64,000 nucleotides of DNA from a virus (IMGVR_UViG_3300021431_000075:128001-192000); one strand, 5' to 3'. Positions 1,945-39,655 are shown, counted from the first letter of the stretch. The notes: generated by a model from the sequence alone, not told the origin. Program-made: numbers and translations.

Positions 1945-2802
1945 CTATGATTGCAAGTTCTTGTTGTTTCCGTCGATTTGTCGATTTTTTATTGCAACGT
2001 CTCTGAGCCATTCTCGAAACTCTCTAACTATAGCATCAATGGGGAAATCTCTCGTGTTTTGATGTTTGTTATAAATTTCAAAGACCTTATCGCATGTCTC
2101 GTCAATGGGAATAGTTATTTCATTACCATCAGAATGACAAATCAACTTCATCCGAGATTCTGCATTGACGGATATATTTGATTTCGGCAATTCTTCTGGA
2201 AAATTACCAGCAATACGCGAAACATCATAAGAATATGCTCCGCTAATCTCATTATGAGCAATGCCAACAATCTTATAAACATCACCGTTGTACTCAATAT
2301 AGTCTCCTTCCTTATATGAAGGCAGTTTTGTTAGTTTCTTGATTTTTGGTTCAAATTCAAAACCAGATTCCATCAACAAATCATCAAGCATTCGCTTATC
2401 TCCGGGAGAAGCCGGGCTTGCTTTCGTTTCATCAAGAATCCAACCGCATTCATATACATTGTCTGTTATCTGAAGATAACCGGACGCATCAATTCCTGCA
2501 AATGCATATACCGAACCGGAAGTAAGTTTGTCGGTATGTGACTTGAATATGACGACAATATCACTGTCATCACCGCCACGTATATAATCTCCGAGTTTTG
2601 CATCTGCAAGAGTCCATAACCGCAAGTCCTTAATCTCATCTGCTGGCACAACATACTGATTGTTTGCAAACTTCTTGAAGTTGCAGCAATTCAAGACTAT
2701 CTTGTCATCGCTTGTTTCACATACGCGTCCGTATCTACCGGTGTCGCCGATACAAACCCAGTCTTTGTAGTTAAATTTTGTTGAATTTTTGTTTGTTTCC
2801 AT
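1945..2802 (-). CDS. modular repeat-family protein (1 W-DA-GD module plus extra SH3-like domain)
   Basis: KFNYKDWV...LWTLADAKLGD...SPASPGDKRML...GFEF. Confidence 0.85.
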   Translation of the reverse strand: METNKNSTKFNYKDWVCIGDTGRYGRVCETSDDKIVLNCCNFKKFANNQYVVPADEIKDLRLWTLADAKLGDYIRGGDDSDIVVIFKSHTDKLTSGSVYAFAGIDASGYLQITDNVYECGWILDETKASPASPGDKRMLDDLLMESGFEFEPKIKKLTKLPSYKEGDYIEYNGDVYKIVGIAHNEISGAYSYDVSRIAGNFPEELPKSNISVNAESRMKLICHSDGNEITIPIDETCDKVFEIYNKHQNTRDFPIDAIVREFREWLRDVAIKNRQIDGNNKNLQS

Positions 2803-2832
2803 AATTCATTGCACATCTTTTTTAATGCATTT

Positions 2833-2841
2833 GCAAATATA
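2833..2841 (-). promoter_or_regulatory. Bacteroidota sigma70-type -7 element (TATATTTGC)
   Basis: Matches the TAnnTTTG consensus about 30 nt upstream of the ATG at 2802; the motif recurs before many operons. Confidence 0.65.
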
Positions 2842-2962
2842 GATAATTATTTGTACCAAGCAAAGAAAAAATAATATTTTTATAATTTTTTAACAATCAA
2901 ATCTAAACTTTTTTCATCTTCCATAGTATACATAATCGCACAATAATTCAAATTCTAACTTT

Positions 2963-3457
2963 ATGGAAGTAATTCAAAGTTTCACAATCGACCACACAAA
3001 CCTGAAACCGGGAATCTATGTTTCAAGACAAGACCGCGGTTTCACCACATTCGACCTGAGAATCACAGAACCGAACAAGGAACCCGCAGTGGCTCCTGCA
3101 GCAATGCACAGTATCGAGCATCTCATGGCGACATGGTTCCGCAACAGCACAGTTAAAGATGATGTTGTCTATGTCGGACCCATGGGATGCCTGACCGGAA
3201 TGTACATCATAATGACAGGGAACTATTCAGTAGAAGATATGCATTCATTGACAATGCAATGTCTTGAATGGATCCTAAAACAAGACAAAGTTCCTGCTAC
3301 GACTCCGCAAACATGCGGAAACTATCTGCTACATGACCTGCCGATGTGCAAATTCGAATGCCAGAGATATCTGAACAGACTGAAAAGCGATTTCCATTCA
3401 GAGTACACAAAACTGGAAATAACTCTTGATGATGGAAAGATGTTCGCAGACGCATAG
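2963..3457 (+). CDS. luxS: S-ribosylhomocysteine lyase (autoinducer-2 synthase)
   Basis: SFTIDH start, FDLR, metal-binding HSIEH (HxxEH), GPMGCLTG with catalytic Cys, and CGNY..H. Confidence 0.95.
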   Translation: MEVIQSFTIDHTNLKPGIYVSRQDRGFTTFDLRITEPNKEPAVAPAAMHSIEHLMATWFRNSTVKDDVVYVGPMGCLTGMYIIMTGNYSVEDMHSLTMQCLEWILKQDKVPATTPQTCGNYLLHDLPMCKFECQRYLNRLKSDFHSEYTKLEITLDDGKMFADA

Positions 3458-3458
3458 A

Positions 3459-3509
3459 AGAGAAAACCGCTTGAATGTCTCATTTGAAGATTTCAAGCGG
3501 TTTTTCTCT
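3459..3509. terminator. bidirectional intrinsic terminator
   Basis: agagaaaaccgcttgaa...ttcaagcggtttttctct inverted repeat between convergent genes. Confidence 0.8.
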
Positions 3510-4528: not shown

Positions 4529-4531
4529 ATG

Positions 4532-4846: not shown

Positions 4847-4884
4847 GTGACGCTCCCAGTCCTAAAGGACCTGGGCTTCGCGGT

Positions 4885-6829: not shown

Positions 6830-6886
6830 ATTGTTATGCCGATTCATACGACGAACTTAAAAGTTCGCGTCTTTCTCGGCATTTTT

Positions 6887-8509: not shown

Positions 8510-8716
8510 TTATTCCTCCAACTTTTTTATTTTGTCAATAGCGTCTGCCACCTCCAGCCAGCTACGGTTGAACGCCTGTTGCTTGTATCGGATGGCTTCA
8601 CGCTCTATCTCAAACTTATGCTCGTTCATGGATGCTATCTGTCTGAAGCACTCATTTTCATACTCCTGCAACGTCTTGACGAGGTTATTCAAGATAGTTT
8701 CTTCATCTTTGGTCAT
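8510..8716 (-). CDS. hypothetical protein
   Basis: 68-aa helical ORF with ATGA coupling. Confidence 0.7.
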   Translation of the reverse strand: MTKDEETILNNLVKTLQEYENECFRQIASMNEHKFEIEREAIRYKQQAFNRSWLEVADAIDKIKKLEE

Positions 8717-9909
8717 GCATTTCCATCTCTTTTTATAATCCTTTTTGAAATCGAAATACCAAACTTTTCAAACTGCTCTCCGAACCGGTCGTTTATCAAT
8801 GCAATAGCGTCAAGAACGCCGCGTCTATATATGTCGCTGACTCTCTTGTCCTTGAAATTGTCAGAACTGTTCTTGAAATGACAAACAAGGTCATCAACAT
8901 CTTTTTGCGTCAACTTCTTGCGTTCGACTTTCTTATTGTCATTTGCACATGAATCTGTTTTGAGACTATTAAAGAACTCAATATCAGATTTTTCAGCAGG
9001 AGTAACAACATAGTCACATGTGGAAAAATCCATTACATTAGTAATCGCAAGCATTGCATCTTCAAGTTCAAACTTGTCTACAAAATATCTATAACCAAAC
9101 GAATAGAAATGAACTTGCTTAGTTTCTCTATCATAACTGCGGAACTTTCCGACAATAGAAATCATTGTTTCATGCTTTTCTCTCTGTCTGATTGAAACCC
9201 TCACAATGTCTCCGTCTTTCACGTCTTCGAAATCAAACAAATGAAATGTTCTATCCGCATATGCGATGCTCTTCGGTCCATTAACCGTTTCATAAACATA
9301 ATTTCCGACATTGATGATTCTCAGAATTTTCAAAACATCAGTTCCGTCAGTCACCACATCTCCGGGTTCGAACTTGTGCTTGACCACCTCTTTCGGCCAT
9401 ATCAGTTGCCTGCTATGTTCGTCAAAACAAATATTGTTATTTTCCATATCTGACCGCATCCGCTCTTTGTCTGAATCGCTCATCGGGAATACAAGAAGAT
9501 TTCCTTCTGACATCTGGATTGCATCTTTAGAAATCCATGTCACTGTACGGAACGGCATTGATGAAGTTTCATCATAAGTGAAAAACAAGCACAGTTTATC
9601 AGTATAAAATTTCGTCTTCTCAACATCCAGTCTGCCGTGGATAATCTTGTTCTCTGGTCCATTATAACCTTTATTAAGAACAATTGTCAAATAGTCTCCA
9701 TCAGATGCATCATCAAGAGTCCATTTGTGGCATCTTGACATATATTCAGAACTTATTGACTCAGGTCCATCTCCATTATCAGAAAGAATTGCACAATCTT
9801 CTCCATAAGGATCTCTTATGAACATCATAATCCGACCAACCAGTTTTCCAGTTTCATTGTTGACAATCCAGTCATTGCCTGAAAATTTTTCTTTCTTTTC
9901 CATCAGCAA
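8713..9909 (-). CDS. modular repeat-family protein (2 modules)
   Basis: KWTLDDASDGD and LFDFEDVKDGD; C-terminal tail shared with 9903..12032. Confidence 0.85.
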   Translation of the reverse strand: MLMEKKEKFSGNDWIVNNETGKLVGRIMMFIRDPYGEDCAILSDNGDGPESISSEYMSRCHKWTLDDASDGDYLTIVLNKGYNGPENKIIHGRLDVEKTKFYTDKLCLFFTYDETSSMPFRTVTWISKDAIQMSEGNLLVFPMSDSDKERMRSDMENNNICFDEHSRQLIWPKEVVKHKFEPGDVVTDGTDVLKILRIINVGNYVYETVNGPKSIAYADRTFHLFDFEDVKDGDIVRVSIRQREKHETMISIVGKFRSYDRETKQVHFYSFGYRYFVDKFELEDAMLAITNVMDFSTCDYVVTPAEKSDIEFFNSLKTDSCANDNKKVERKKLTQKDVDDLVCHFKNSSDNFKDKRVSDIYRRGVLDAIALINDRFGEQFEKFGISISKRIIKRDGNA

Positions 9910-12032
9910 ATATTTTTCTTTGAAATAGAAAATCCAAACTTTTCAAACTGCTCACAAAACCGCTCGTTTAACAATGCAATAGCATCAAGAACGCCGCGCC
10001 TATATATGTCACTGACTCTCTTGTCTTTGAAATTATCGGAACTGTTCTTGAAATGACAGACAAGATTATCAACATCTTTTTGCGTCAAACTCTTGCAATC
10101 GACTTTCTCATTTGTCATACAAAAACCCGCATTCTGCTCCCAGTAGTTTGAGTCCGTTCCTTTGATAAGACGCTTGAGATCTTTGTCAAGTGCAAACCCG
10201 TGCTTGAACATATCATCAAACATCCTATTCTTTTGATGTTCATCCATCGGCACAACATCTCCGCAAATGTCAGTATACGGAATCGACTGACATGTCTTGA
10301 ATTCAACCTTTGCATCCTTGTTCATCGAATTATAAGACATGTACAAGCATAGATATTCATCATCAGATTTAGACTTGGCATATGTTCCGCATATAAAATG
10401 CATAAACTGAATTCCATCCACTCCGGGAGCGACAGGAACCGATACCATCATGCCATCATATGCATCATTGATAGTCCAGTTGTGATACAAGCCGAAACAC
10501 TCTTGCGATATAACCTCTGTATCTCCTGTCCTGTTGTCAAGAACAGCGCTTCCATATTTGTCAAATCTGGAAAAACGTCCAATCAAATTACCATTCTGGT
10601 CTGCAACCCAGCCACCAAAGCGAATTTCTCTCGTATCATAGAAATGCTTCTTGTCGCTACAAAGAGCATATCCTCTCTTGTTCAAGCATTCTTTGATTTT
10701 ATTGATAACTCTCTTCGGAACCGGTTCAACAAGAACATTGCCTTTTTCATCATGTAGCCGGAATCTGACATCCTTTACCAAGTTCACATAGTCGCTATCC
10801 AGATTGGAACATGAGAAATATAAAGAAATCGTATCTTTATCTGTTTCTTTCTTGTTCAATGGTCCATAAACAACTTTTGTGATTTTTGAATCAAGAACAA
10901 GAACATAGTCGCCGTCTTTTGCATCATCAAGACACCACTTATGACATTTGCTCATATATTCCATGTCAACAGCGCCAACTTCCACGTCACCATCACGAAC
11001 AACTGCATAAATGTTATTCAATCGGTCTCTTCCAACCAAATCGATCACACCGACAAGCTTCCCGTCATCATTCCGAACAAGCCAGTCATTGACTTCAAAC
11101 CTGCACTCTTCACCATTCTTTTCAACGCTTTCAATAGAGTCCGTTGCAACCAGTTTCCTTGAGTCGTCAGAAAGAGAATAACCGCATTTTTTCATAGCAT
11201 TCTTGAACTCGTCAAGAATGCAATTGCTAATCGGAGTTACATCTTCCACAAAATCAGAGGTATTGCGAACCCATGTTTCATTCTCGATAAATCTATCTCC
11301 ATGCTCTGAACCACAAACCAATGAGAAATACAAACAAATCTTGTCACTATTGCTCTTCTCCCTGTTCAATGGACCAATCAATAAATATTCAAAACTATTG
11401 ACAACAACAAAATCACAGTCATGCGCATCCGCTATTGTCCACTTATGGCAATTATTCAAAAATTCAATACCAACGAATGAATATTCGCTGTTGTCAAGAG
11501 CCACATATGGACATGCATTTATATTGACACCAGAACTTACAACCCTACCAACAATCTTCCCTTCGGCATTGACAATCCAGTCATAATATTCAAAATTCGG
11601 ACGCTTAACACCAGCACGGTCGAATTCCACCTGTCGATTCAACGGAGGATACTCATAGTCTTCCTGTTCAGTCAACGGAATCGTCTCATTATTGCAATGA
11701 TAATCGAAACAATCAACATAAACAACAACTGGCAATCCGCTTGTTATTCCGTTTTTTGCTTCCTCTTTTGTTCTCATAACATCGCCGATTATGAACTTCG
11801 GCGTGATGTGTCCGGTCTCTATCTCTTCCGCCGTTGCATAACGGAAGTATGCGGAAGCATCTTTCAGCCCCATCATGAACATTCCGCGCTTCGCCTTGAC
11901 AACCGACCCGCGCTTCGCCTGCAGATTTCCGCCGGCATAATAATCCTTGATACACACGTACCATCTGCCGTGCTCTATCTTCACGACATTTTCATTATTG
12001 ATTTCATTCATTGGTTCTTCTATTTTTCCCAA
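9903..12032 (-). CDS. modular repeat-family protein (3 modules)
   Basis: KWTIADAHDCD, KWCLDDAKDGD, NWTINDAYDG; N-terminal WYVCIKDY domain. Confidence 0.85.
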   Translation of the reverse strand: MGKIEEPMNEINNENVVKIEHGRWYVCIKDYYAGGNLQAKRGSVVKAKRGMFMMGLKDASAYFRYATAEEIETGHITPKFIIGDVMRTKEEAKNGITSGLPVVVYVDCFDYHCNNETIPLTEQEDYEYPPLNRQVEFDRAGVKRPNFEYYDWIVNAEGKIVGRVVSSGVNINACPYVALDNSEYSFVGIEFLNNCHKWTIADAHDCDFVVVNSFEYLLIGPLNREKSNSDKICLYFSLVCGSEHGDRFIENETWVRNTSDFVEDVTPISNCILDEFKNAMKKCGYSLSDDSRKLVATDSIESVEKNGEECRFEVNDWLVRNDDGKLVGVIDLVGRDRLNNIYAVVRDGDVEVGAVDMEYMSKCHKWCLDDAKDGDYVLVLDSKITKVVYGPLNKKETDKDTISLYFSCSNLDSDYVNLVKDVRFRLHDEKGNVLVEPVPKRVINKIKECLNKRGYALCSDKKHFYDTREIRFGGWVADQNGNLIGRFSRFDKYGSAVLDNRTGDTEVISQECFGLYHNWTINDAYDGMMVSVPVAPGVDGIQFMHFICGTYAKSKSDDEYLCLYMSYNSMNKDAKVEFKTCQSIPYTDICGDVVPMDEHQKNRMFDDMFKHGFALDKDLKRLIKGTDSNYWEQNAGFCMTNEKVDCKSLTQKDVDNLVCHFKNSSDNFKDKRVSDIYRRGVLDAIALLNERFCEQFEKFGFSISKKNIC

Positions 12033-21980: not shown

Positions 21981-21988
21981 CTGAAAAT

Positions 21989-22408: not shown

Positions 22409-22419
22409 TAAAAAAAGCA

Positions 22420-26138: not shown

Positions 26139-26143
26139 CGATT

Positions 26144-28465
26144 ATGGACAATAAACTAAAATTCAATATCGGCGACTATATCGCAAATGACTATTGCTTC
26201 GGAAAAGTGATAGAAATCACAGATGATGCTTATCTGTTGGACACCGGACAGGGAATCCCGTTCTCTTGTGAGCATAATGCACATATCTGGACCATCACCG
26301 ATGCGAAAGATGGGGATGTGCTTGCAGATGAATACGGCACGATAATCATGTACCATTCTATGTGTTCGGTTGGCAATGCAAACGTACACTGCTGCATAGA
26401 GAACGGGAAATTCATTGCCAGAAACATCGGAGTGTTCGAAACCGAGAACTTCCATCCAGCGACAATAGAGCAGACAGAATTGATGTTATCCAAGATGAAA
26501 GAATCTGGATATGAGTGGAATGCCGAGAAGAAAGAACTGAAACCAATTAGCAAACCAAAATTCAATGCCGGAGACTGGGTTATAGACAACCTTGGTTTTG
26601 TCTGGAAAATCGAATCCATTGAACAAAATCTATATCACATTTGCGATTCCGAAGGCGTTGAGTCATTACCTGATATAGTTTGGGCAGACAATCATTTCCG
26701 TCTTTGGAGCATCACTGATGCAAAAGACGGTGATGTGCTTATTGAAGATTCTTGCATTTTTATTATTCAAAAATTGGGTGATAATAGTAATGCTGCGAAA
26801 ACATATTGTACATTACATGATGATGGCGATTTTGTTGACGGTTCAATATTATATTTTGATATAGATAGTACTAAACCAGCCACCAAAGAACAGCGTGACA
26901 TCTTAATCCAAAAGATGCATGAAGCCGGCTATGAGTGGGATGAAGAGAAAAAAGAGATTAAGAATGTAAAAATGGAAAGTGAGATTATTGAAAAGTTCAT
27001 AGTTGGAAAATGGTATACATGCGTAAAGGATTTCTTTGACAAGAGTGTCCATTTCGACAAAGGAACCGCATATTTTTGTTCAGGAGAAGAAAGGCTGGAA
27101 GCAGAAGACGGAAATCATGTCTGGATTCCTGAGAACTCGTACAGCAACTTCAAGCTCTGGAGCATTTCTGATGCAAAGAAAGGCGACATACTTGTACATA
27201 ATGATTGTACATTTATCTTTATGGGAATCAAGGACGGCATAGTACAAGCTATCGAGGAGAATATGCTTGAACCTATATCTTTTGGCGAACCGGACAAAGA
27301 CAATGATTATCATCCAGCCACCAAAGAGCAATGCGAATCGCTGTGCCGGAAAATTGCGGAAGCCGGTTACACTTGGAATCAGGAAAAGAAGAAAATAGAG
27401 AAGATTGGAGAAACTCCTGATGAAAACAAAGAGTTGAAACCGATTGACAAACCAAGATTCAATGTCGGAGACTGGGTTATAGACAACCTTGGTTTTGTCT
27501 GGAAAATCGAATCCATTGAACAAAGTTTATATCACATTTGCGATTCAGAAGGCGTTGAGTCGTTACCTGATATAGATTGGGTGAACAATCATTTCCGTCT
27601 TTGGAGCATCCAAGATGCAAAAAAAGGTGATATACTTTTTCAAGATTTAATGGGTGGATTTACATTTATTTTTGATGGATTCGACTCAGAAATGGCAATA
27701 TTGTATTCTTTTATTATAAGTAATGATGGCGAAGATGTTTTGCCATATCATATAGGGAAACCAAATACAGGTATAGGATATGTTGAAGAAGCAGGCATTA
27801 TCTACCCAGCCACCAAAGAACAACGTGCGTTGATATTTCAAAAAATTGCGGAAGCCGGTTACACTTGGAATCAGGAAAAGAAGAAAATAGAGAAGATTGG
27901 AGAAACTCCTGATGAAAACAAAATCCAGCCGAAGTTCAAGGCAGGGGATGTGATAGTCCATAAACTGTCGATGAAGATGGGTTCATCATCTTGGGTTTCT
28001 GGAAAAATCGAGAAAATAGAAGGTGATAGATACATCTTCACAGACGGTTCTTATTTCTTCATCAAGGAACAAGACGAATGGGCTTTCTTTGAACATATGC
28101 CGACAGAAAATACAATCAAGCCGAAGTTCAAGGCAGGGGACTGCATTGTTCATTCTACATGGAAAGACATATATCCACATTCATCTTGCGGAACAATCAA
28201 GGAAGTCAAGGATGACAGATATATCTTCGAAGACGGTAGTTATATCAAGATGTGTGACCAAGACTTATGGGAGTTGTCAAAACCAAAAGATGACGACTGC
28301 AGCAACAAATCATCCGACAACGGTCTGCGTTATGCATTGTCAATCCTTGAGCAGTCTCTCGGAATCGTTCCGGGCTATCAGACAAATGACGGCTTATTAA
28401 AGCACAAGCAGGCAATTGCCGCTGTGAAGAATGCATTGAAGCAGAAGTCATCACAATCTGACTGA
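26144..28465 (+). CDS. modular repeat-family protein (4 modules plus two KFKAGD domains)
   Basis: Start MDNKLKF at 26144; contains internal near-identical duplications. Confidence 0.9.
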   Translation: MDNKLKFNIGDYIANDYCFGKVIEITDDAYLLDTGQGIPFSCEHNAHIWTITDAKDGDVLADEYGTIIMYHSMCSVGNANVHCCIENGKFIARNIGVFETENFHPATIEQTELMLSKMKESGYEWNAEKKELKPISKPKFNAGDWVIDNLGFVWKIESIEQNLYHICDSEGVESLPDIVWADNHFRLWSITDAKDGDVLIEDSCIFIIQKLGDNSNAAKTYCTLHDDGDFVDGSILYFDIDSTKPATKEQRDILIQKMHEAGYEWDEEKKEIKNVKMESEIIEKFIVGKWYTCVKDFFDKSVHFDKGTAYFCSGEERLEAEDGNHVWIPENSYSNFKLWSISDAKKGDILVHNDCTFIFMGIKDGIVQAIEENMLEPISFGEPDKDNDYHPATKEQCESLCRKIAEAGYTWNQEKKKIEKIGETPDENKELKPIDKPRFNVGDWVIDNLGFVWKIESIEQSLYHICDSEGVESLPDIDWVNNHFRLWSIQDAKKGDILFQDLMGGFTFIFDGFDSEMAILYSFIISNDGEDVLPYHIGKPNTGIGYVEEAGIIYPATKEQRALIFQKIAEAGYTWNQEKKKIEKIGETPDENKIQPKFKAGDVIVHKLSMKMGSSSWVSGKIEKIEGDRYIFTDGSYFFIKEQDEWAFFEHMPTENTIKPKFKAGDCIVHSTWKDIYPHSSCGTIKEVKDDRYIFEDGSYIKMCDQDLWELSKPKDDDCSNKSSDNGLRYALSILEQSLGIVPGYQTNDGLLKHKQAIAAVKNALKQKSSQSD

Positions 28466-28523: not shown

Positions 28524-29612
28524 ATGGAAAACTTTAATGTGAACCTCGAAGAATTAGTCTCAGACTATAATTCAAACACATCTTCAAAAGATGCAACAAT
28601 AAACGACATGCTTGAACACAATAACTTCATGTGCGAAAACCCGTATAATCCAACAGGTTCAATCACAAGAAAGTATGACATCAAGAAAAGCGACTACATA
28701 TTCAATGAAGATTTCAAGGAAACGTTTCTCGTGACTGATGAAAATAATATGTTCATCACTGCAAAAAACATCAAGACCGGAGAAGTCAGCAGGTTCCTGA
28801 AAACATGCAAGACAATTCAACAATGCCCGGTTATTCCGAACACAATACACACATGGTCAATCAAGGATGCGAAAGCATTTGATGTGATAGCAACAGACAA
28901 TTTCGTTTTCATGTTCAAGCAGATGAATGAGTATACCGGCGCAGTGTTTTGCTATTGTGCGGCTCTACTTTCCAGAATCAACCAGAATGACGAAAACGCT
29001 TTCATGATTCCTGCTAAGAATGCAGTCATCGGAACATCAGAACACACGTCTTATCGACCAGCTACGGAAGAAGAGACAAAATATCTCTTGGATGAACTCG
29101 ACATGCACGGTTTGGAAATGAACTATGACAAGAACTATTTAACATGGAATGATAAAAACCATGAGAATTCCTCGATAATACACAGATGGATTATCGATGC
29201 AAAAACAAACGAATTATTCAGAGTTGCCAGTTTCTACAAAGACGAATTCACGATTGAGCATAAAAACGGAAGCACATTCAAGAAAGACGCAGAACTTGTA
29301 AGAACTCTTCTGAAGAACAACGAGTACAGGCGCTGGGATTTTTTAAATGCAACTATAAATGTCGGAGATGTCTTTGTCCAAACACACGGCAATGACGAAT
29401 GGCTTTATATGGCGACAGAACTCGTTGGTTCGAAAATGACATTTGTTGAATTTTATGCAAATACAGGAAAATTTGCAAAGAAAGAATGGCATTTATCTCC
29501 GGAGAACTATAACAAATTAGGTTATGCAATCGATCCGGCTACAGACTTCCAAAAAGAACAGATGATTTCTCTGATGAAAGACAGCGGTTATAAAGTTCCA
29601 GAACAAATTTAA
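28524..29612 (+). CDS. modular repeat-family protein
   Basis: TWSIKDAKAFD...RPATEEE; second degenerate module ending DPATDFQ; similar to 17709..18755. Confidence 0.85.
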   Translation: MENFNVNLEELVSDYNSNTSSKDATINDMLEHNNFMCENPYNPTGSITRKYDIKKSDYIFNEDFKETFLVTDENNMFITAKNIKTGEVSRFLKTCKTIQQCPVIPNTIHTWSIKDAKAFDVIATDNFVFMFKQMNEYTGAVFCYCAALLSRINQNDENAFMIPAKNAVIGTSEHTSYRPATEEETKYLLDELDMHGLEMNYDKNYLTWNDKNHENSSIIHRWIIDAKTNELFRVASFYKDEFTIEHKNGSTFKKDAELVRTLLKNNEYRRWDFLNATINVGDVFVQTHGNDEWLYMATELVGSKMTFVEFYANTGKFAKKEWHLSPENYNKLGYAIDPATDFQKEQMISLMKDSGYKVPEQI

Positions 29613-29983: not shown

Positions 29984-31291
29984 ATGAAAACCGATAACGA
30001 ATATCTTGAACGAGCAAGAGAAATCATTTCAACTGCCGACATAAGGGACAACAGCATTGCAATAATGGCAATCAAATATATATTCCCTGAACTCAATCAA
30101 GAGAATACAGGTGATGATGCAAAAAATCCGAAAAATGCAAGTGATGATGCAAAAAGCAGAAACCATAAAGACAACCGTGTTTTCCCAGTAATCGCAAGAG
30201 AGAACAAGACTGGAAAACTCATAATCATCAACGGCGGACAGCTTGACGACTGTTCAGACGAATATATCAAATATGTATCCGATGACGGTTATCATGTGTA
30301 CAATCCAGATGAAATCATATTCTATGACGAATGCGAGAACGATTCAGAGAAAAAGAAAGAAACCGGCGACTTCAATGTAGGAGACTGGATTGTAGAAGAA
30401 CTATCCGGAGAATGGCTTGTTGTGACTGATGAAAAGCAATTCACATACACAGCAGAGACCATCAGCGGAAAGCAATTCATCATCCAGAAAGACAGAACAA
30501 AACATAACGGTTATCACAGATGGACGCTGGATGACGCAAGCTCCGGAGATGTTCTTGCAGACTATGTTCAGAACTGTGACAATCCGCTCATCTTCATCTT
30601 AAAGGACTTCAAGCATATCAAGTACAATCTTGTCAAGGAATCTGACTACCACTCTTTCTGCTATCTCAAAGCCAATGAAAGACAGCAGTTCTGTACAGGC
30701 AGCTGGCATCACATCCATGACTTGAAACCCGCTACTGCAAAGCAGCAAGAACTTCTGTTCAACAAAATGAAAGAAGCTGGTTATTCTTGGAAACCTGACA
30801 CTCTCGAATTGACAAAAACAAAACTTGAAACGAAGTTTAAGATTGGCGACTGGATTACTGATAGACAAACTACTGTACAAATTTCCGAAATAGATAACAC
30901 TATTGATGGTTGTTACCGTTGCATTAACGGAAACCACGGATTTGGCACATTTGTTATTGAAATTGCAAAAGCAGACGAAACATTTCATATTTGGACAATA
31001 GAAGATGCCAAAACTGGAGATGTGCTTGCAACAAAATATGCTATTTTTATTTTTAAGCATATGGATATAGCAAGATTAAGTCTTTTTAGTGTATGCAGGT
31101 CATATTGCGAAGTGATAGGTGATTCTGAATTAAGCTTGGGATTTGATTTTCCTCTAAATGACATTCACCCAGCACCAGCAACTAAAGAACAGAAAAATCA
31201 GTTATTCAAAAAAATAAAAGATGCTGGTTATGAATGGAATCCGGTTACTCTCAAATTGACAAAAAATGAACTCTGGATAGTCTCGAATTGA
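29984..31291 (+). CDS. modular repeat-family protein (2 modules)
   Basis: RWTLDDASSGD, IWTIEDAKTGD. Confidence 0.85.
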   Translation: MKTDNEYLERAREIISTADIRDNSIAIMAIKYIFPELNQENTGDDAKNPKNASDDAKSRNHKDNRVFPVIARENKTGKLIIINGGQLDDCSDEYIKYVSDDGYHVYNPDEIIFYDECENDSEKKKETGDFNVGDWIVEELSGEWLVVTDEKQFTYTAETISGKQFIIQKDRTKHNGYHRWTLDDASSGDVLADYVQNCDNPLIFILKDFKHIKYNLVKESDYHSFCYLKANERQQFCTGSWHHIHDLKPATAKQQELLFNKMKEAGYSWKPDTLELTKTKLETKFKIGDWITDRQTTVQISEIDNTIDGCYRCINGNHGFGTFVIEIAKADETFHIWTIEDAKTGDVLATKYAIFIFKHMDIARLSLFSVCRSYCEVIGDSELSLGFDFPLNDIHPAPATKEQKNQLFKKIKDAGYEWNPVTLKLTKNELWIVSN

Positions 31292-31414: not shown

Positions 31415-33172
31415 ATGAGCAAAAAAGATGAAATCCCTTTTGGTACATTTGATAGCGGACTTCAAGAACAGGAATTTTGTATTCCGGATGGATTTGAGGC
31501 AAGCATTGAAAACGGAAAAATTGTCCTTCATAAAATAGAGAGTAAGGATGAAAAGATAAGGAAAGCAATAGTAGAGTTTTTTGAACTCCAAGATGACAAC
31601 ACTACTTATTCTTTTATCCCAAAGAAAGATATTCTTGCTTGGCTCGAAAAGCAAAACCATGATGGCAAAAAGTGGATTTATGAAGATGTATATCTAAAAG
31701 AAAAGGAGCAACTGATTCAAGATGGTATAGATGAAGTGTTGGAAAATCCACAAAAGTATGGTCTTGACAAGCAAGGTAAATACGAGACTATTTGGAAACC
31801 GACAATAGAGCAAATAAATGCTCTTACTCATTTTATCAGAAGTGTTGGAGAAAGTGGCTATGCTTCTCCATATGACCAAAATACAAAGTTGCTTTATTCT
31901 TTATTAACGGATTTACAAGTTCTTCAAAAGCAAGGTGAGCAAAAGGAAATAAACCTTGTTGAGATATTAAAAAATTATCCGAATGAAACAGAACTATATT
32001 CTCCATTATATGGTAAACTTTGGCTTGCAGAAGTTGATGAAAAAAATGGAATAATTACGTGTTACAAGCAACCTTTAAATAAAGGTTGCACAAGAGCAAT
32101 ATTAGAACAAGAAGATACAGTATCTTTTTATTCTAATGGCACTACAGGACTGCCTGATTATAATGTTTCAAAAGATTGTATGCTGTTTGTTTATGATGTT
32201 GGAAATAAAGGAGAGCAAAAGCCTGTCAATGATACAGATGAAGATATTGTTGAAGCAGTCAAAAGAACTTCCATTCTTGATTTGGTTGAGCCAAAGTTCC
32301 ATGAAGGTAATTGGGTTGTACAAAAAAATAGTGGAGTCTATAAGGTTATTGAGATATGCAAATCTTGGTATGAAGTAATTGATTTCGAAGATAATCATTA
32401 TTCGATTTCTTTTGATAAAGAGCATATGTGTCATCTTTGGTCAATACATGATGCTAAGGACGGTGATATTCTTGCATGCAATGGAAGCATATTCATCTTT
32501 AAAGAAGAATATATGGCAGGAAAGCCTACTGCTTATTGCGGTTTAATTAATGGTGTTTTTCATGTAAGTACTTTAAGTTGTTGGACAAATGAAAAATGCT
32601 ATCCAGCAACAAAAGAGCAACAAGATTTACTCTTCTCCAAAATGAAGGCATCAGGATGGTCTTGGAATCCAACAACAAAAGAACTTAGTCAATCAAGAGT
32701 GACTAAGATAAGTGATAAAGATAGAATAGCAACAGATATTGCCATCAAGGCACTCAATCATAATACCGTAAATGATTCTTATTGCAAAGAAAATTGCAAA
32801 GGATATCAAGAAACGGGAAAATGTTATGCCGATTGGGCTTGCGAAGCCAAAAGAAAGGCAGATGTTGTTAAACCGATTTTCAAGGTCGGTGATGAGGTAT
32901 ATAACAAATTTGACAAATCACTTGCTCACGTTATCATCGAATACGTTGACGAATCCACATATTATGGCGATACAACAAACTTTGACATTATTGACCAAGA
33001 CCAATGGGGAATCGTTAGAAGTTGTGAGAATTGCAAATGCGGACACTATGATTACCCTACTGTGTCATGTTATCTTCATAAAGATTGTGGCGGTGACGAA
33101 CCTATTATAATTCATGATGATGACTTTGTAGAGACTGCAATGAACTGTAAAGAGTTTGAACAAGAAAATTAA
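31415..33172 (+). CDS. mosaic repeat-family protein (1 module plus several small domains)
   Basis: SKDEKIRKAI, WKPTIEQ, INLVEILK...LYSPLYG, LWSIHDAKDGD, Cys-rich tail. Confidence 0.85.
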   Translation: MSKKDEIPFGTFDSGLQEQEFCIPDGFEASIENGKIVLHKIESKDEKIRKAIVEFFELQDDNTTYSFIPKKDILAWLEKQNHDGKKWIYEDVYLKEKEQLIQDGIDEVLENPQKYGLDKQGKYETIWKPTIEQINALTHFIRSVGESGYASPYDQNTKLLYSLLTDLQVLQKQGEQKEINLVEILKNYPNETELYSPLYGKLWLAEVDEKNGIITCYKQPLNKGCTRAILEQEDTVSFYSNGTTGLPDYNVSKDCMLFVYDVGNKGEQKPVNDTDEDIVEAVKRTSILDLVEPKFHEGNWVVQKNSGVYKVIEICKSWYEVIDFEDNHYSISFDKEHMCHLWSIHDAKDGDILACNGSIFIFKEEYMAGKPTAYCGLINGVFHVSTLSCWTNEKCYPATKEQQDLLFSKMKASGWSWNPTTKELSQSRVTKISDKDRIATDIAIKALNHNTVNDSYCKENCKGYQETGKCYADWACEAKRKADVVKPIFKVGDEVYNKFDKSLAHVIIEYVDESTYYGDTTNFDIIDQDQWGIVRSCENCKCGHYDYPTVSCYLHKDCGGDEPIIIHDDDFVETAMNCKEFEQEN

Positions 33173-33425: not shown

Positions 33426-33751
33426 AAATTACAACACAGTTTATCGACAAAGACGCTTTAATAGCAGAGATAGAAAAAGCAATAGACGAACCAGCACCTT
33501 CACATGACCAACAATGTCCTTGGGAAGATGGATATTATTGCGGTCTAAATAAGGCGGAGTCTATAATTGACAGCCTTGAAGTGAAAGAAGCGAAAGATGT
33601 GGACTTAAAAAAAGAGATTTATGAAGCGGAAAAAAGATTCGGAGATATAGACGAAATGGGTGGCTATAGAATTCTAATATTTGATGATGAGTTCCGTGAT
33701 ATTCTACATCATTTCTTTGAACTTGGTCGTAAATCACAGAAAGGAGAATAA
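33422..33751 (+). CDS. hypothetical protein (IDKDALIAEIE N-tag, HFFELG C-motif)
   Basis: Coupled ORF; motifs shared with 34026 and 40243. Confidence 0.75.
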   Translation: MKITTQFIDKDALIAEIEKAIDEPAPSHDQQCPWEDGYYCGLNKAESIIDSLEVKEAKDVDLKKEIYEAEKRFGDIDEMGGYRILIFDDEFRDILHHFFELGRKSQKGE

Positions 33752-33853
33752 TATATGAGCGATATGAGCGATGAAATGTGCGGAAAAAACTGTTTGTTTC
33801 CGTTGATTATTTTTATCAGTTCGATTATTGGACTTTGTGTATATAATTTTTAG

Positions 33854-34000
33854 GTGTTCATCCAGCAACCAAAGAACAACAAGTACTTCTCAGTAAAATG
33901 AAAGAATCTGGTTACGAATGGAATGCAGATACTCTTGAAATGTCAAAAACAAAACTTGAAACGAAGTTTAAGATTGGCGATTGAATCACTGATGGATTTT
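33854..34000 (+). pseudogene. orphan fragment of the repeat module
   Basis: GVHPATKEQQVLLSKMKESGYEWNADTLEMSKTKLETKFKIGD*ITDG; DNA resembles 30770-30862; no start codon. Confidence 0.7.
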
Positions 34001-34337: not shown

Positions 34338-35063
34338 ATGGAAACAATAGACAAGAACAAACTTCTTGAAATCATAGAAGAAAGAATGCAGGAACTGCGT
34401 CCGACAAACACCGGGAAGATGCAGACCGGAGAAAGAATAGACAACGACACTCTCATGTGGCTGAACGCGCTGACATGGGTCAAGAAGAAAATCAGTGACA
34501 TTTCATCCAAACAAACAAGCAGCACAGATTCATCAATCAAGATTCCAAAGCCTGTGCTTGATGAAATCAAATTCGATAAATGGATTATTAACAAGGGAAA
34601 TCCGATTAAGATTGTCGGGGGCGTGGGAAATGAGTATGTTGCTGTTGATACAACCGGCAAAGTCCGCGGAATTTTTCCAGAAGAACTTAGGAAATATAGA
34701 CCATGGACTATCGAAGATGCAAGACACGGAGAACTGATATTCAACGAAAGATGGCACAAGATATTCATTCTTGATTCATTCGATAAAGAAACTGTGACTG
34801 CAAGCATATCTTATGTTCAGAACGGAGCAGTTTCCAAGTTCGACCAGTTTCCGAAATATGAGCCGTTCTCTCCTGCTTCGAAAAAGCAACAAGACGAGTT
34901 CTACAACGTGCTTGAAACATATTTGTTAAACAAGCATTTGGAGAAAGAATGCGACAAGAAATGAACAATTAAGGATGCAAAGACCAATGACTTGATTTTC
35001 AACAAGACAATGAACCGGTTATTCATTTTCTCGCACATCGGTTCGAAATTCATAAATGCAGGC
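34338..35063 (+). pseudogene. repeat-family gene, 5' part (ORF 34338..34964; second module broken by TGA and an insertion)
   Basis: After TGA 34962-34964 the frame continues TIKDAKTNDLIF...FINAG up to the insertion. Confidence 0.75.
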
Positions 35064-36788
35064 ATGATGTAACTTTCATGTAACATTTTGTGTCAAGTTG
35101 TTCTTTTTGAAAGAAATCTTCTTGGCATAAATTTTATTAGACAAAAGTTTGGAGACAACTGGCTGACAAGCAGACAGAGAGACGCGATACATGATTTTCG
35201 AGTCTGCTTTTAGAGCATAGTAGATTTTCCTCAAGTCTATTTCAGAGTTCTTCAAGTTAAATACTTCCATCGTTCGCTCTATCTGTTCTCTGAAGTCGTT
35301 GACATCAGGAAATACTATGTTCTTTGTTTTTGCAAAATCACTTGCAATATACTGGTGGTAGAACTCGTAAGTCCTTCTTCCTATTTCGATTGATGCAAGG
35401 CACATGTCTGCATAGCCACAATCCCTGAACACGAAGTTGCCTACGAAGCTGCTGTACTCGCACATCACTTCCAAGCATTCTATGTTGTTCTCTGCACATT
35501 TCTTTCTTAAATTGTTGATTAGTGGTCTGCGGAGCCACATGTTGTTTATCAATCTATTGTAATTGGTTCCTTTCTTGTTGTCCTTTGTTACGATTGCAAG
35601 TTGCTCGTAGCCGAACAGAGAACAACCGTAGTGAACTGCTATGCTTATTAAAGTTTTGGATATGAGAAATATCTCGTTGTATCTTTCATTTGTTAACTTC
35701 TTTCTCTTTCTATGACTGCTTGGAAGATGCTGTTCTTTCAGTGCATTTTCTGCGTCATTAAGGTCCTTGATTGTAATAGTATTTGATTCTACTATATGGA
35801 AGTCTCCGTGCGATTTCCAGTCAACAACACTCCAACCCACATAGTTAGGATTCAAGTCTATCGCAAGAACTCTATCTTGAATCTGCTTCGGTCTGTTTTC
35901 TATCTTGACGTTCTTGTACAGTTCTTTGACTTTGTATGATATATAAACGAAGTTAGCATCAATCTTGTAAGTGATAGGCATGTCACCTGCAACCTGATGC
36001 TCATAGAGCAGTCTTATAATCTTGAGATAATTCTTCGATAGCCTTGCAGAGAACTTAACTTCCATCCAATTCTTGTCAGACATCTTTATTCTAACTCCGC
36101 TCAAGTCATCAAGCAATCTGAACTTCCTGTTGCAGTGAACTTTCATTGTCCCTGAGTCTGCCGTTCCTATACAGACGAACGGAGAGAGCCTGCTTGCTCT
36201 CAGTTCGTCCTTCGAAACCTTGCCGCTTCTGTATTCGTTCATCAGTGACTTGCCGCCGAAGCAAGTCCGTATCTTCTTCTCGCTTGACTTCTGAAGTTCC
36301 TTCTCCGTTTCATATATTGCATTGCCTTCATATACGGCAGACTGTTTAAGCCAAGAATCAAGCAAGTCTATGTCATTGTAGTTGTCAAATGAATTAAACT
36401 TTACAGAAAGTCCTTTTTCATATTTCTTGAACGCGGACCGTATTATGTGCGTCTGCTGTCTCTGCAAATCGGAAATCAACATACGTTCTTCGGTTGAACT
36501 GTATTCAACCGGAATCTTTATCGTGCTGTATGTATCTTTCTGGTTTTTTGACATATTATAATGCTTTGAATGACATAGTATTTATCTTTAAAATAGTTCA
36601 ACATGAAGATTATCAAATGAATTTTATGTTAAAAACAATTAAAAATCAATCTGTATATATATTTTTTTTCAGATTATTATTGCATATTGTTTATTTAATC
36701 ATTATCTTTGCATTGTGATACGAATTCATTAAAAATGATAATATGTTTATATTTTATAATATAAAGAATAAAAAATAATTTATGAATT
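35064..36788 (-). mobile_element. non-autonomous TnpB-only insertion element
   Basis: Deleting 35064..36788 rejoins AAT GCA GGC|ATA ACA TAT GAC (NAG-ITYD) in frame; minus-strand target TTAT, element end TCAT. Confidence 0.85.
35076..36554 (-). CDS. tnpB: TnpB-related RuvC protein lacking the CxxC Zn finger
   Basis: RuvC-I VLAIDLNPNYVGWSV, RuvC-II FGYEQL, YSSFVGN, RuvC-III ADMCLASIEIGRR. Confidence 0.8.
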   Translation of the reverse strand: MSKNQKDTYSTIKIPVEYSSTEERMLISDLQRQQTHIIRSAFKKYEKGLSVKFNSFDNYNDIDLLDSWLKQSAVYEGNAIYETEKELQKSSEKKIRTCFGGKSLMNEYRSGKVSKDELRASRLSPFVCIGTADSGTMKVHCNRKFRLLDDLSGVRIKMSDKNWMEVKFSARLSKNYLKIIRLLYEHQVAGDMPITYKIDANFVYISYKVKELYKNVKIENRPKQIQDRVLAIDLNPNYVGWSVVDWKSHGDFHIVESNTITIKDLNDAENALKEQHLPSSHRKRKKLTNERYNEIFLISKTLISIAVHYGCSLFGYEQLAIVTKDNKKGTNYNRLINNMWLRRPLINNLRKKCAENNIECLEVMCEYSSFVGNFVFRDCGYADMCLASIEIGRRTYEFYHQYIASDFAKTKNIVFPDVNDFREQIERTMEVFNLKNSEIDLRKIYYALKADSKIMYRVSLSACQPVVSKLLSNKIYAKKISFKKNNLTQNVT

Positions 36789-36935
36789 ATAACATATGAC
36801 TGCAGTCTTGATTCATTTGAAAACGAAAGCGTTTTCTCAAAGCAAGACGAGTTCTTCCCTGCAACAAAAAGCCAGTTCAATATGTTCCATGACAAGTTGC
36901 TTGACAAGCACTTTCCAAACAATCAAAACCAATAA
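36789..36935 (+). pseudogene. 3' remnant of the gene split by the 35064..36788 element
   Basis: ITYDCSLDSFENESVFSKQDEFFPATKSQFNMFHDKLL completes a module. Confidence 0.75.
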
Positions 36936-36942
36936 GAAAGAA

Positions 36943-39453
36943 ATGAAGAAACTAATAGACAAAGAAAAAGTCGTATCTGAAATAAAGAGAAGGATACGAA
37001 TACTTGAAGATACTATCAACAAACCGGATACTCTCCAGTTTCTCAAGTCTGCTTTGGGATATGAAGTTGAAAGATACAAATCCCTGATTTCGTATCTTGA
37101 TACGATGGAAACGACAGACGATCTTGAAAATATGATTCTTGAACTTCCGGAGTCGATTGCAAATCCGAAAAACCATCAAATTTATCAGTTGTCAATTTAT
37201 CATTATGACAGAAGCTGCTGTGTAGACTATGTCGGAGAACTGGAACATGACTCGCTGGTTTGCTTTGCGGAAAGTACATTTGCAAAAGCGGCAGACAAGA
37301 TGAAAAACTGGATAAAAGAAAACAAGATAGACAAGCATCTGCAGATTCCTGATGAATATGATGTCGTGAACACAACCGGTCAAGAACAAAATAATCTAAA
37401 TTTTGACGAGGTTGAAAAATTCATGATGAATACAAATGCTGAAAACCTTGAAGTCAAGAAAGGCAAATCGTACATTTGTATAGAAGACTGGAAGAAGCGC
37501 GGCACATCATTCACAAAAGGCAAGATATACGTTTGCCATAAAGACAGATGCATGTATGATGATTTCGGAGCAGAGAAAGCATCAGTCAGCAAGTTGTTCC
37601 GTCTTGCAACAAAAGAAGAGATAAAAAAGTCAAAAGCTTTCAGAAAAGGAGACTGGATTGTACTGCTTACAGAAGGCAATGACAACATCACTGTTCAAAT
37701 CATGGATGTTGAAGTGACATCGGACAAAGAAACCCGATACTGGATCTCCGACAACAAACTCAATATGAGATGGTTTGATGACAAATCAATCGCAAGACCA
37801 TGGAACATAAAATTTGATGCAAAAGACGGCGACATTCTCTGCACATATGAATGCGAAGAACCGAAAATCGTGTTCATTCTAAAGGGAAATCCGCATCCGT
37901 TGAGACCGTGCGTGTTAAGTTACTACTGCTACTACAACATCATGTATCCATATTTCGACCCAGGAATCGAAAAGGGTTGTCTTGCTCCCAATGATGAAGA
38001 TGTGAAACCTGCTACAAAAGAGCAGCGTGACACTCTCTTTGCAAAGATGAAAAATTCTGGTTATGAATGGGACGGTGATACAAAGAAGTTGATGGAAATT
38101 GAGCAGAAACCTGCTGATAAGGTTGAGCCAAAGTTTCATGAAGGAGACTGGGCTGTTTCTAATTTAGACGGAAATGCAAGACAAATTTCTGAAGTTCACT
38201 TTGACGAATATAATAGTTATTATGTTGTTGAAGGAAAATCTGTTAATTTAGAAGAATATGATAGACTACACCATCTTTGGACTATTGCTGATGCACAGGA
38301 CGGAGATGTGCTTAGTGATGGAACTACTATTTTTATATTCAAAAACTTACTATCAGACGGTTCAGTTATGTCATATTGTGACTATGATACAGATAGTAAT
38401 GAGAGCGATGCTTTCTGCCCATTATCGGTGAATTTGATATGTTCAAAAATTACTCCTGCGACCAAAGAACAGCATAATACTCTTGAAAAAGCAATGGTTG
38501 ATGCAGGATATACCTTTGACTTTGAAAAGAAAGAAATGAAGAAGATTGAACAGAAGCCTGCTGATAAACCTGAACATAAGTTTAAAGTTGGCAATTGGAT
38601 TACAAATGGCCATTGTACGTGTCAAATTACATTTATTGATAGTCGTTATTGGTATTCAAAACATTGTGTATTAGGTGATATTACATCTATTGATAAAACT
38701 TTCCATCTTTGGTCAATAAATGATGCACAGGACGGTGATGTACTTGCAACAGAACCGATTGATAGTTATAAATCTCCGTTTGTCGCCATTTATAAAAATC
38801 ATGGTCTTGATTTCTTTAATTCATATTGCTTTATTTGTTTTGATGGCAAATTTTATGAAGCAGGGACAGGACATTCAATAGAAAATATTCATCCTGCTAC
38901 AAAAGAGCAGCGTGACACTCTCTTTGCAAAGATGAAAGAAGCAAGTTATGAATGGGACGGTGATACAAAGGAGTTGATGGAGATTGAGCAGAAACAAGCA
39001 ATAGATTATCCAGATAGTCTTCCAAAAGACAACTGTGAACTTGTTCATGAATTCATTGAGAATTTTGGTAGAATGCCGGAAGATGAAGATGAACTAAACG
39101 TTCTTGTGGAATATGTCTTAAAGAGGCAGAAACCTGCTGAATGGAGTGAAGATGATGAAAGAATATGTCAATGCATTATCAAAGAACAAGAAGAAGCTCT
39201 TGTTGAAGTAAGAAATGACAAATATGGTCATTCAGAAATCATTTCAGATCTAAAGGAAATGTATCGTGAAAGAATCGATTGGCTCAAAAATCGCAAAAAC
39301 AGAACACTTCCGCAGCAAAAACAAGAATGGAGTGAAGACGACGAACAGAAATTTAGAGATGTAATCAGACTCATTGAACAAGGGGCGACTGTTCAATCAA
39401 TAAGAAACCATTATATAAATTGGTTCAAATCTCTCAGACAAAGGATAGGATAG
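36943..39453 (+). CDS. modular repeat-family protein (3 modules plus helical tails)
   Basis: Start MKKLIDKEKV at 36943; PWNIKFDAKDGD, LWTIADAQDGD, LWSINDAQDGD; EWSEDDE repeats; frame stays open past the TAG to 39558. Confidence 0.85.
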   Translation: MKKLIDKEKVVSEIKRRIRILEDTINKPDTLQFLKSALGYEVERYKSLISYLDTMETTDDLENMILELPESIANPKNHQIYQLSIYHYDRSCCVDYVGELEHDSLVCFAESTFAKAADKMKNWIKENKIDKHLQIPDEYDVVNTTGQEQNNLNFDEVEKFMMNTNAENLEVKKGKSYICIEDWKKRGTSFTKGKIYVCHKDRCMYDDFGAEKASVSKLFRLATKEEIKKSKAFRKGDWIVLLTEGNDNITVQIMDVEVTSDKETRYWISDNKLNMRWFDDKSIARPWNIKFDAKDGDILCTYECEEPKIVFILKGNPHPLRPCVLSYYCYYNIMYPYFDPGIEKGCLAPNDEDVKPATKEQRDTLFAKMKNSGYEWDGDTKKLMEIEQKPADKVEPKFHEGDWAVSNLDGNARQISEVHFDEYNSYYVVEGKSVNLEEYDRLHHLWTIADAQDGDVLSDGTTIFIFKNLLSDGSVMSYCDYDTDSNESDAFCPLSVNLICSKITPATKEQHNTLEKAMVDAGYTFDFEKKEMKKIEQKPADKPEHKFKVGNWITNGHCTCQITFIDSRYWYSKHCVLGDITSIDKTFHLWSINDAQDGDVLATEPIDSYKSPFVAIYKNHGLDFFNSYCFICFDGKFYEAGTGHSIENIHPATKEQRDTLFAKMKEASYEWDGDTKELMEIEQKQAIDYPDSLPKDNCELVHEFIENFGRMPEDEDELNVLVEYVLKRQKPAEWSEDDERICQCIIKEQEEALVEVRNDKYGHSEIISDLKEMYRERIDWLKNRKNRTLPQQKQEWSEDDEQKFRDVIRLIEQGATVQSIRNHYINWFKSLRQRIG

Positions 39454-39655
39454 AAACCTACTAAGAAACAGTTATCCGAACTTCACTGCCTCATCAGTGG
39501 GCGCTCTTGTGATATAGATGAAATTGTTAAATTAGAAGAAGAATTAAAAGAATTATGAAATGGGTTCACGGCACAATTAAAGAAGCATGGAAATACATTC
39601 AGAATTGAAGAAGACCGAAAACAAGACTCTTGAACCTATAAAATAGATTATTAAA

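Follow-up and report, generated by a model that had tools for sequence, protein, structure and literature searches.

The 64,000-nucleotide stretch of viral DNA IMGVR_UViG_3300021431_000075:128001-192000 (hereafter the window) encodes a large family of proteins assembled from copies of one module, in which two small β-barrels are joined by a conserved hinge and followed by a helix-hairpin cap. The approximately 54 copies present in 25 genes of this phage are the product of a lineage-specific birth-and-death expansion. As modelled, the module consists of two familiar small β-barrels in an arrangement that is without a close solved counterpart. We tentatively propose, as a possibility that falls somewhat short of even chances, that the module proteins are cytoplasmic, early-expressed, multivalent binding adaptors. 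The window corresponds to C1:128001-192000 of a single 673,114-bp phage genome (40.7% GC, standard genetic code, five tRNA genes), and the IMG/VR virus record has direct terminal repeats and an estimated completeness of 100%. This megaphage is a phage of gut or rumen bacteria.

Census of the module in the megaphage genome

In a regular-expression scan of the large, named open reading frames (ORFs), the hinge motif W[ST]..DA..GD had 21 occurrences and PAT.EQ had 12. The four aligned modules of ORF 26096-28465 were then used as the seed of an iterative hidden Markov model (HMM) search of the 3,184 genome ORFs of at least 50 aa, which converged after five rounds on 54 module domains in 25 ORFs, with domain E values from 1e-8 to 7e-44. 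An independent six-frame search of the genome with an alignment of 27 full copies returned 50 matches. The window contains 35 of the 54 domains, in 16 ORFs, by the profile search; an earlier note made from the sequence had counted by eye roughly 35 copies, the number now obtained, and about 15 genes, a near-correct figure that rises to 16 with ORFs 13221-13679 and 34338-34964, which also belong. At least two more window copies are decayed or split and were found by six-frame reading through stops. The profile has 143 positions, and module copies are 127 to 163 residues long, with one to four per protein in the window and up to six overall, strung together by short linkers. Module genes cover 58% of positions 1945-39558, 39% of the window (the large share that had been noted) and 5.5% of the genome.

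Fold and conserved residues

The 27-sequence module alignment was modelled with AlphaFold2, and the C-terminal half (C-half) was also modelled alone. The whole module gave a pLDDT of 95.3 and a pTM of 0.85, and the isolated C-half a pLDDT of 94.5. The order of elements in the model is an N-terminal Tudor/SH3-like barrel, the hinge W-x-I-x-DA-x-x-GD, a second barrel with longer strands, the PAT-x-EQ helix and a G-Y-x-W hairpin. The N-terminal half (N-half, residues 1-54) is a five-stranded small barrel, for which DSSP places the strands within residues 7-49, four of them of at least three residues together with a short bridge; the C-half has five longer strands (residues 60-107), a 13-residue helix and a short hairpin. 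Both halves belong, at the level of fold only, to the small β-barrel (SH3/Tudor/KOW/Sm) class.

Exhaustive structural alignment against 48,161 PDB representatives identified Tudor/SH3-like barrels as the best matches of the N-half (Z about 6-7.3, rmsd 1.4-2.3 Å over 46-54 residues), with UvrD/PcrA C-terminal domains, CarD, TraI, RecD2, Spt5 KOW and plant and animal Tudor domains among the top matches. The best matches of the C-half are Sm/LSm proteins and extended Tudor domains, with Z no higher than 5.6. With Foldseek, the whole module retrieves tandem Tudor, Agenet and KOW pairs first, at probabilities of up to 1.0 and TM scores of 0.26-0.39. Both barrels are aligned at once solely by the RapA N-terminal domain, with an rmsd of 6.7 Å. 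Because the Z values are not above background, these matches establish the fold class but not kinship. At that level the proposal in the earlier note of tandem SH3/KOW/Tudor-like barrels was right, and the AlphaFold and Foldseek check that it had suggested yielded a confident two-barrel model with fold-class matches. The matched barrel class (Tudor, KOW, SH3, Sm) mostly binds peptides, proteins or nucleic acids.

W50 and A55 do not vary across the 27 full copies in the window, and conservation is at least 90% at D54, G58, D59 and P107, whereas mean column identity is 27%; the description of conserved hinges with highly divergent intervening sequence holds. An alignment of 149 modules from different metagenomic proteins has a mean column identity of 26% and 19 positions conserved at 90% or more: F2, G5, D6, W50, I52, D54, A55, G58, D59, L61, P107, A108, T109, E111, Q112, L116, G124, Y125 and K132. 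The aromatic residues among these are F2, W50 and Y125, and W7 and Y27 are present in the majority of the 149 modules. Gaps and insertions in the module alignments sit between strands in both barrels. Placed on the model, the conserved positions are the strand starts and ends, the hinge and the helix cap, and it is the strands and loops that vary.

Search for known families and distribution of the module

No Pfam, PHROGs or NCBIfam model covers the module. With PHROGs, no family was common to more than one of the 27 window modules (best E 0.003), and two profile searches of PDB sequences returned chance-level rows (E of at least 0.026). The Pfam family DUF4250 (PF14056, gathering score 27 bits) reaches whole-protein scores of 28.6 bits for P0001, the protein encoded by ORF 26096-28465, and 34.3 bits for P0156 by summing weak matches to the PAT-x-EQ helix, with no single stretch above the gathering score and 14.3 bits for a single module. 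The statement that no characterised family is recognisable therefore stands for Pfam, PHROGs, NCBIfam and PDB sequences. CarD_TRCF_RID (PF02559) matched 0 of the 27 window modules at an E limit of 1 and 0 of the 149 metagenomic modules at 0.01, and Pfam LSM matched none of either set. In one metagenomic homologue, P0211, the N-barrel slot (residues 357-400) scores 34.1 bits on CarD_TRCF_RID, for which the cut-off is 23, and this suggests from sequence that the slot can be swapped for other Tudor-like barrels.

An HMMER scan of 1.84 billion cluster representatives of metagenomic proteins (50% identity) detected the module in 7,076 clusters at E ≤1e-3 and 5,621 at E ≤1e-10. All matches whose names were checked were metagenomic and unnamed, or "hypothetical protein". 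ESM Atlas returned only unnamed clusters, one at a TM score of 0.90 and others covering just residues 48-135, and the BFVD matches were to uncharacterised proteins whose sources are uncultured phages of the gut, among them a crAss-like one; some matches in these two databases cover the C-half plus helix only. A tblastn search with P0001 and P0223 (a homologue from a Prevotella prophage, described below) found nothing among 50,697 GenBank phage records at a threshold as permissive as E 0.1, and megablast of window positions 40000-52000 likewise gave no match. A degenerate DNA pattern of the hinge, used to find carrier contigs, retrieved over 116 contigs from IMG/VR, of about 5 to 435 kb, together with 12 from GTDB genomes; most of these 12 come from rumen metagenome-assembled genomes, and misbinned huge-phage contigs are among them. 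The HMM confirmed the module in all 133 loci fetched. A related-locus search with a single module found two viral loci and no GTDB locus. In the literature on the WDGH domain, Tudor-like phage families and rumen megaphages, we found no description of the module. It appears to be typical of phages in rumen and gut metagenomes, and thousands of uncultured phages carry one or a few copies.

Expansion, recombination and decay

Copy number was compared with 49 other viral records chosen for the hinge motif, of 35 to 410 kb, 27 of which are at least 90% complete. Those records have one to nine matches each, compared with 50 to 54 in the megaphage, and the genome is therefore an extreme expansion. 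In L010, a distant but syntenic relative represented by 23 kb of a 70-kb rumen contig, seven ORFs contain 14 modules, which indicates that the tendency is common to the clade of this phage; the proteins of L010 are 30-50% identical to those of the megaphage, and dS is saturated.

Within the genome, N- and C-halves alternate nearly always, with five lone C-halves and one lone N-half. The paralogues are old and highly diverged, N-halves having a median identity of 19% and C-halves one of 22%, and against this background individual halves can be seen to have been exchanged at the hinge. The third module of the protein encoded at 15507..17534 and module 3 of 26096-28465 have N-halves that are 76% identical and C-halves that are 32% identical, and for modules 2 and 4 within P0001 the corresponding values are 88% and 46%. 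Between phages, module 1 of P0001 and the P0223 module share N-barrels of about 80% identity and C-halves of about 25%. The combinatorial origin that had been proposed for the family is thus borne out by two clear half-module exchanges in the genome and one between phages. Recent duplicates have dN/dS values of 0.16-0.33 over 51-82 codons; these estimates are imprecise, and they indicate constraint rather than neutrality. The 7,076 metagenomic clusters, too, have kept the motif in unbroken ORFs. Taken together, conservation, half-module exchange and decay describe a family that is constrained, recombining and subject to birth and death.

The modules are mixed with other recurrent pieces, namely a leader mini-domain, WLEKQ and WSEEDE/WKP helical units, lone barrels and WDGH. 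The leader is an N-terminal mini-domain of about 55 aa (I-D-F-x-x-L-L ... G-I/F-E) found in 7 of the 25 module proteins, including those encoded at 13221-13679, 17709-18755, 18904-20502 and 28524-29612 in the window, and also in a module-free ORF at 1332-1742 (-); it could be a docking or oligomerisation element. Pfam searches of 148 non-module segments of homologues gave one GNAT insertion, in a single metagenomic homologue, and otherwise chance-level rows.

Gene context, promoters and charge

The cultured rumen isolate Prevotella sp. tc2-28 has a prophage-like contig (NZ_FNRE01000014.1) carrying the single-module gene P0223 (L142:8351-10090), the product of which also has WLEKQ and WSEEDE/WKPS helical repeats. 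The plus-strand block of P0223 encodes DUF6291, an AAA/SMC-like ATPase, an HNH endonuclease, a RecT-like annealing protein and a metallo-β-lactamase-fold protein, and the tape-measure and tail-fibre genes of the prophage lie on the opposite strand. P0223 sits in an early recombination operon, and through it the context of module genes is, indirectly, compatible with early expression, as judged from gene order. An RVT_1 reverse-transcriptase-like ORF (E 2.5e-6) was observed approximately 8 kb downstream of P0223, at L142:17795-19204.

Across approximately 130 other loci, the commonest co-oriented neighbours are five small unannotated families, YopX, DNA methyltransferases and HNH endonucleases. 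The five small-protein families (80-200 aa) occur on the same strand beside module genes in 24-54 of these loci (L009-L141), and one of them is a free-standing F-P-E-L-K-E-S-E-D-E-x-I-R-K ... W-L-E-K-Q unit. Pfam matched none of ten recurrent neighbour families. By annotation, this neighbour set is the usual content of phage early or accessory regions.

In a strict Bacteroidota promoter scan, 5 of the 16 module genes in the window had a TAnnTTTG box no more than 250 nt upstream, and two of these also matched the full TTG-N17-23-TAnnTTTG pattern. The earlier note had placed the genes mostly behind host-type promoters, which is true of these five and not of most, and many module genes that lack an upstream box belong to closely packed arrays of one orientation. 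The N-termini of module proteins showed neither a signal peptide nor a membrane segment. The modules are acidic, with a median pI of 5.0 and a net charge of about -6, and whole module proteins range from -10 to -50. Acidity was considered as a sign of DNA mimicry and rejected, the background proteome being almost equally acidic.

Predicted function and alternative explanations

In the proposed mechanism, each module would be a rigid scaffold in which the invariant residues build the core, hinge and helix cap, and in both barrels the variable strands, together with loops of differing length, would form the recognition surface. Cytoplasmic proteins from early or accessory gene blocks would act as multivalent adaptors or decoys, binding host proteins or the proteins of competing elements early in infection, and duplication, divergence and half-module exchange at the hinge would yield new specificities. 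A bolder version, which we regard as a long shot, is that the approximately 54 copies constitute a recombining library of intracellular binders, reshuffled at the hinge within and between phages, that neutralises changing host defence or housekeeping proteins.

Several points weigh against the adaptor prediction. The function is drawn from fold class, conservation pattern and gene position. The structural matches, with Z scores of 5.6-7.3, lie within the range that the alignment tool gives for unrelated small domains, and they single out no ligand type. An overall dN/dS below 1 does not demonstrate diversifying selection, and several copies are decaying, so weak selection on the family would fit too. 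With a box close upstream of just 5 of 16 genes, early transcription by the host polymerase is unsupported by the promoters. The module proteins are also just a little more acidic than the phage's other proteins (median pI 5.19 versus 5.52), so that charge carries little weight in either direction.

Barrels of this class might instead bind RNA, single-stranded DNA (ssDNA) or modified DNA, the proteins serving, for example, as RNA chaperones or protecting or marking the nucleic acid of the phage, with the arrays adding avidity. Such a role would accord with the best matches of the C-half, which are Sm/LSm proteins and an Sm-like protein of an uncultured organism (Z 5.0-5.6), with the presence of a PWWP-ssDNA complex and KOW domains among the structural matches, and with the recombination genes adjoining the Prevotella prophage gene. 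However, the modules are acidic, the Z scores are at background level, and there is no conserved basic patch, K132 being the only basic near-invariant residue; we consider nucleic-acid binding improbable, if the least so of the alternatives weighed here. The N-barrel resemblances raise another explanation, that the N-barrel docks on the β subunit of host RNA polymerase (RNAP), as do CarD, TRCF (Mfd), UvrD/PcrA and RapA, and redirects transcription during takeover. The UvrD C-terminal domain with the RNAP lobe (Z 7.2), CarD (Z 7.1) and the Mtb CarD/β complex (Z 6.9) are among its matches, RapA contributes the sole chain spanning both barrels, and the P0211 N-barrel exceeds the CarD_TRCF_RID cut-off. 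Nevertheless, not one of the 27 window or 149 diverse metagenomic modules matches that family at the E limits given above, barrels of myosin, MscS and histone readers score equally high Z values, RapA aligns at the high rmsd already mentioned, and 54 divergent copies are hard to square with a single conserved target. A predicted complex of the P0223 module with RpoB residues 1-480 from the same Prevotella genome scored 0.00, which speaks neither for nor against binding. Modulation of RNAP is in our view very unlikely, and the least probable of these readings.

Phage decoration and fibre proteins often contain repeated small β-rich domains, and strings of barrels could serve as adhesion or spacer domains in proteins that decorate the capsid or tail, or that are packaged and ejected with the DNA. 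We judge a virion role quite unlikely: the Prevotella prophage gene lies in the early recombination-side operon on the strand opposite to the tail genes, no PHROG structural family is matched, and no shared cleavable leader was found, the mini-domain being present in just 7 of the 25 proteins. It is also conceivable that there is no diversified binding role, and that the family is fast-evolving and largely dispensable, spreading through duplication and recombination in a genome large enough to tolerate it. Decayed and transposon-split copies, three nonsense codons at Trp positions, the extreme divergence of paralogues (median 19-22% identity) and the lack of known partner domains in Pfam searches of non-module segments and neighbours would all fit such a history. 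What makes dispensability unlikely is the low dN/dS of recent duplicates, the intactness of most copies in ORFs of up to 930 aa, the retention of the same 19 core positions across thousands of phage lineages, and the presence of at least one copy in every one of the 27 near-complete viral genomes in the motif-selected set.

The module is a very large unannotated family that occupies 5.5% of one of the largest phage genomes known. With a confident model, a simple sequence signature and a culturable carrier in the tc2-28 prophage, the function of a major component of phage dark matter becomes testable. Should the modules prove to be diversified binders, one use that huge phages make of extra coding capacity would become apparent, and the modules might provide a compact natural binding scaffold. 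A binder library, if true, would amount to combinatorial, repertoire-type counter-defence of a kind not yet described for phages.

Module genes and other features of the window

Three module genes and a short lone-half gene lie on the minus strand at the left of the window. The 285-aa protein encoded at 1945..2802 (-) has one module (2329-2778, profile search) and a C-terminal tail with a lone GD-type barrel-like stretch, and its upstream region matches the full TTG-N-TAnnTTTG pattern at 2834-2863 and has -7 boxes at positions 2841 and 2905. The 398-aa protein encoded at 8713..9909 (-) has two modules (9400-9888 and 8923-9375, profile search) and shares a C-terminal tail, at 84-87% identity and with a dN/dS of 0.16, with the protein encoded at 9903..12032. 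That second protein (709 aa, minus strand) has three modules (11148-11597, 10641-11102 and 10164-10622) and an N-terminal variant barrel. ORF 13221..13679 (-) encodes 152 aa, comprising the leader mini-domain of about 55 aa and a lone C-half barrel (13245-13496).

The plus-strand series begins with a 675-aa protein at 15507..17534 (+) with three modules (15984-16415, 16452-16853 and 16875-17282, profile search). It is followed by two proteins with the leader mini-domain, one of 348 aa at 17709..18755 (+) with two modules (17898-18353 and 18369-18749) and TAnnTTTG boxes upstream, and one of 532 aa at 18904..20502 (+) with two modules (19081-19524 and 19540-19971) and an extra C-half (19954-20286). 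The 923-aa protein at 23367..26138 (+) combines four modules (23946-24398, 24456-24860, 25251-25658 and 25698-26123, profile search) with a WDGH domain (PF25311, residues 72-170, E 2e-37) and a helical insert with the WLEKQ motif. P0001 (789 aa, 26096..28465, +) has four modules (26159-26542, 26558-26962, 26993-27400 and 27455-27892) and two lone barrels at its C-terminus; its true start is probably the ATG at residue 17. A further leader-bearing protein of 362 aa at 28524..29612 (+) has two modules (28674-29144 and 29175-29609), as does the 435-aa protein at 29984..31291 (+; 30368-30814 and 30833-31261, profile search). The 585-aa protein at 31415..33172 (+) has one module (32294-32689), a Cys-rich stretch, a lone barrel and a helical N-terminal region with E-x-I-R-K ... 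WLEKQ and WKPT-x-EQ motifs.

Decayed and interrupted copies follow. Six-frame reading identified a module remnant at 33730..33945 (+), consisting of a PAT-x-EQ helix and the beginning of the next N-barrel, with three in-frame stops, one of which is a TGA in place of the GDW tryptophan. The broken module gene at 34338..36938 (+) begins with ORF 34338-34964, which has one intact module (34566-34946); a TGA stop occurs at the hinge Trp of the module after it, and that second module is cut by a TnpB-type element at approximately 35064-36788, the PAT helix resuming at approximately 36789-36938. At 36796..39558 (+), the 885-aa ORF 36796-39453 has three modules (37636-38094, 38131-38541 and 38578-38979) and WSEDDE helical repeats at its C-terminus, and homology extends to approximately 39558, past a TAG at 39451. 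Nonsense codons thus occur at three conserved-Trp positions, TGA at 33982 (GDW), TGA at 34962 (hinge W) and TAG at 39451 (W-K-P-T), each of them one G-to-A change from TGG; they could reflect decay through a biased mutation process, or something else. Two minus-strand genes lie apart from the others, one at 59137..61929 (-) encoding 930 aa with a 609-aa region followed by two divergent modules (59650-60102 and 59140-59544), and one at 63425..64000 (-) encoding 192 aa with one divergent module (63518-63946) and extending 3 nt beyond the window end.

The element that splits the broken gene (ORF 35076-36554, -) is one of several TnpB/IS605-type elements in the window, others being at 4885-6297 (-) and 45895-47148 (-). 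The last has an 83%-identical copy in the related rumen phage contig (L010:7568-8821), where it is annotated OrfB_IS605. Three adjacent paralogues of approximately 130-139 aa are located at 21561-22812 (+); the middle one, 21989-22408, corresponds to a gene annotated YopX in a near-identical assembly, and YopX also recurs beside module genes of other phages. An intact LuxS (S-ribosylhomocysteine lyase) homologue at 2963-3457 (+), which matches LuxS crystal structures at E 4e-17, stands alone on the plus strand amid minus-strand phage genes. One of the five tRNA genes of the genome, tRNA-Arg (TCT), is at 45060-45134 (-).

Comparison with known systems

The module resembles the tandem Tudor readers (53BP1, UHRF1, BAHCC1, SETDB1 and plant Agenet pairs) in having two consecutive small five-stranded barrels, and the 53BP1 barrels, like those of the module, are followed by a C-terminal helix. 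These readers are the top whole-module Foldseek matches, at probabilities of 0.9-1.0. The sequences are 7-17% identical and match no common family, structural alignment superposes one barrel at a time, and the low TM scores (0.26-0.39) and rmsd of 6-12 Å suggest that barrel placement may differ. Tandem Tudor readers are, moreover, proteins of eukaryotic chromatin, whereas the hosts here are bacteria, which are without histone tails.

Among bacterial proteins, the CarD/TRCF RID and UvrD/PcrA C-terminal domains (PF02559 and relatives) are single five-stranded barrels of approximately 50 residues that resemble the N-half (Z 6.4-7.2, rmsd 1.8-2.9 Å, 47-53 residues aligned). They occur once per protein, adjoining helicase or helical domains, in contrast to the arrays of alternating N- and C-halves, and the window modules, unlike CarD/TRCF RID, have no match to the Pfam model. 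The two Tudor-like barrels of the RapA N-terminal domain align over 93-95 residues across both halves (Z 6.5-6.7), although at an identity of 10-11% in addition to the large rmsd, and RapA is a single-copy bacterial Swi2/Snf2 ATPase without the helix-hairpin cap. The C-half shares long, bent strands with Sm/LSm proteins (57-60 residues aligned at the Z scores given above), but its helix is C-terminal, whereas that of Sm is N-terminal, and Pfam detected no Sm1/Sm2 motifs.

In scale, the closest parallel is Bacillus phage G, which has a lineage-specific expansion of a zinc ribbon to approximately 35 copies (Iyer et al. 2021, PMC7824862). Each of the two is a very large phage in which one small domain has been multiplied into tens of paralogues. 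The phage G domain differs in its zinc-ribbon fold, in its proposed transcription-factor or DNA-binding role, and in having neither a two-half unit nor multi-copy chains (PMC7824862). New here are the sequence family, the helix-capped two-half unit, the extent of the family in metagenomes and the scale of the expansion, on a fold class that was already known.

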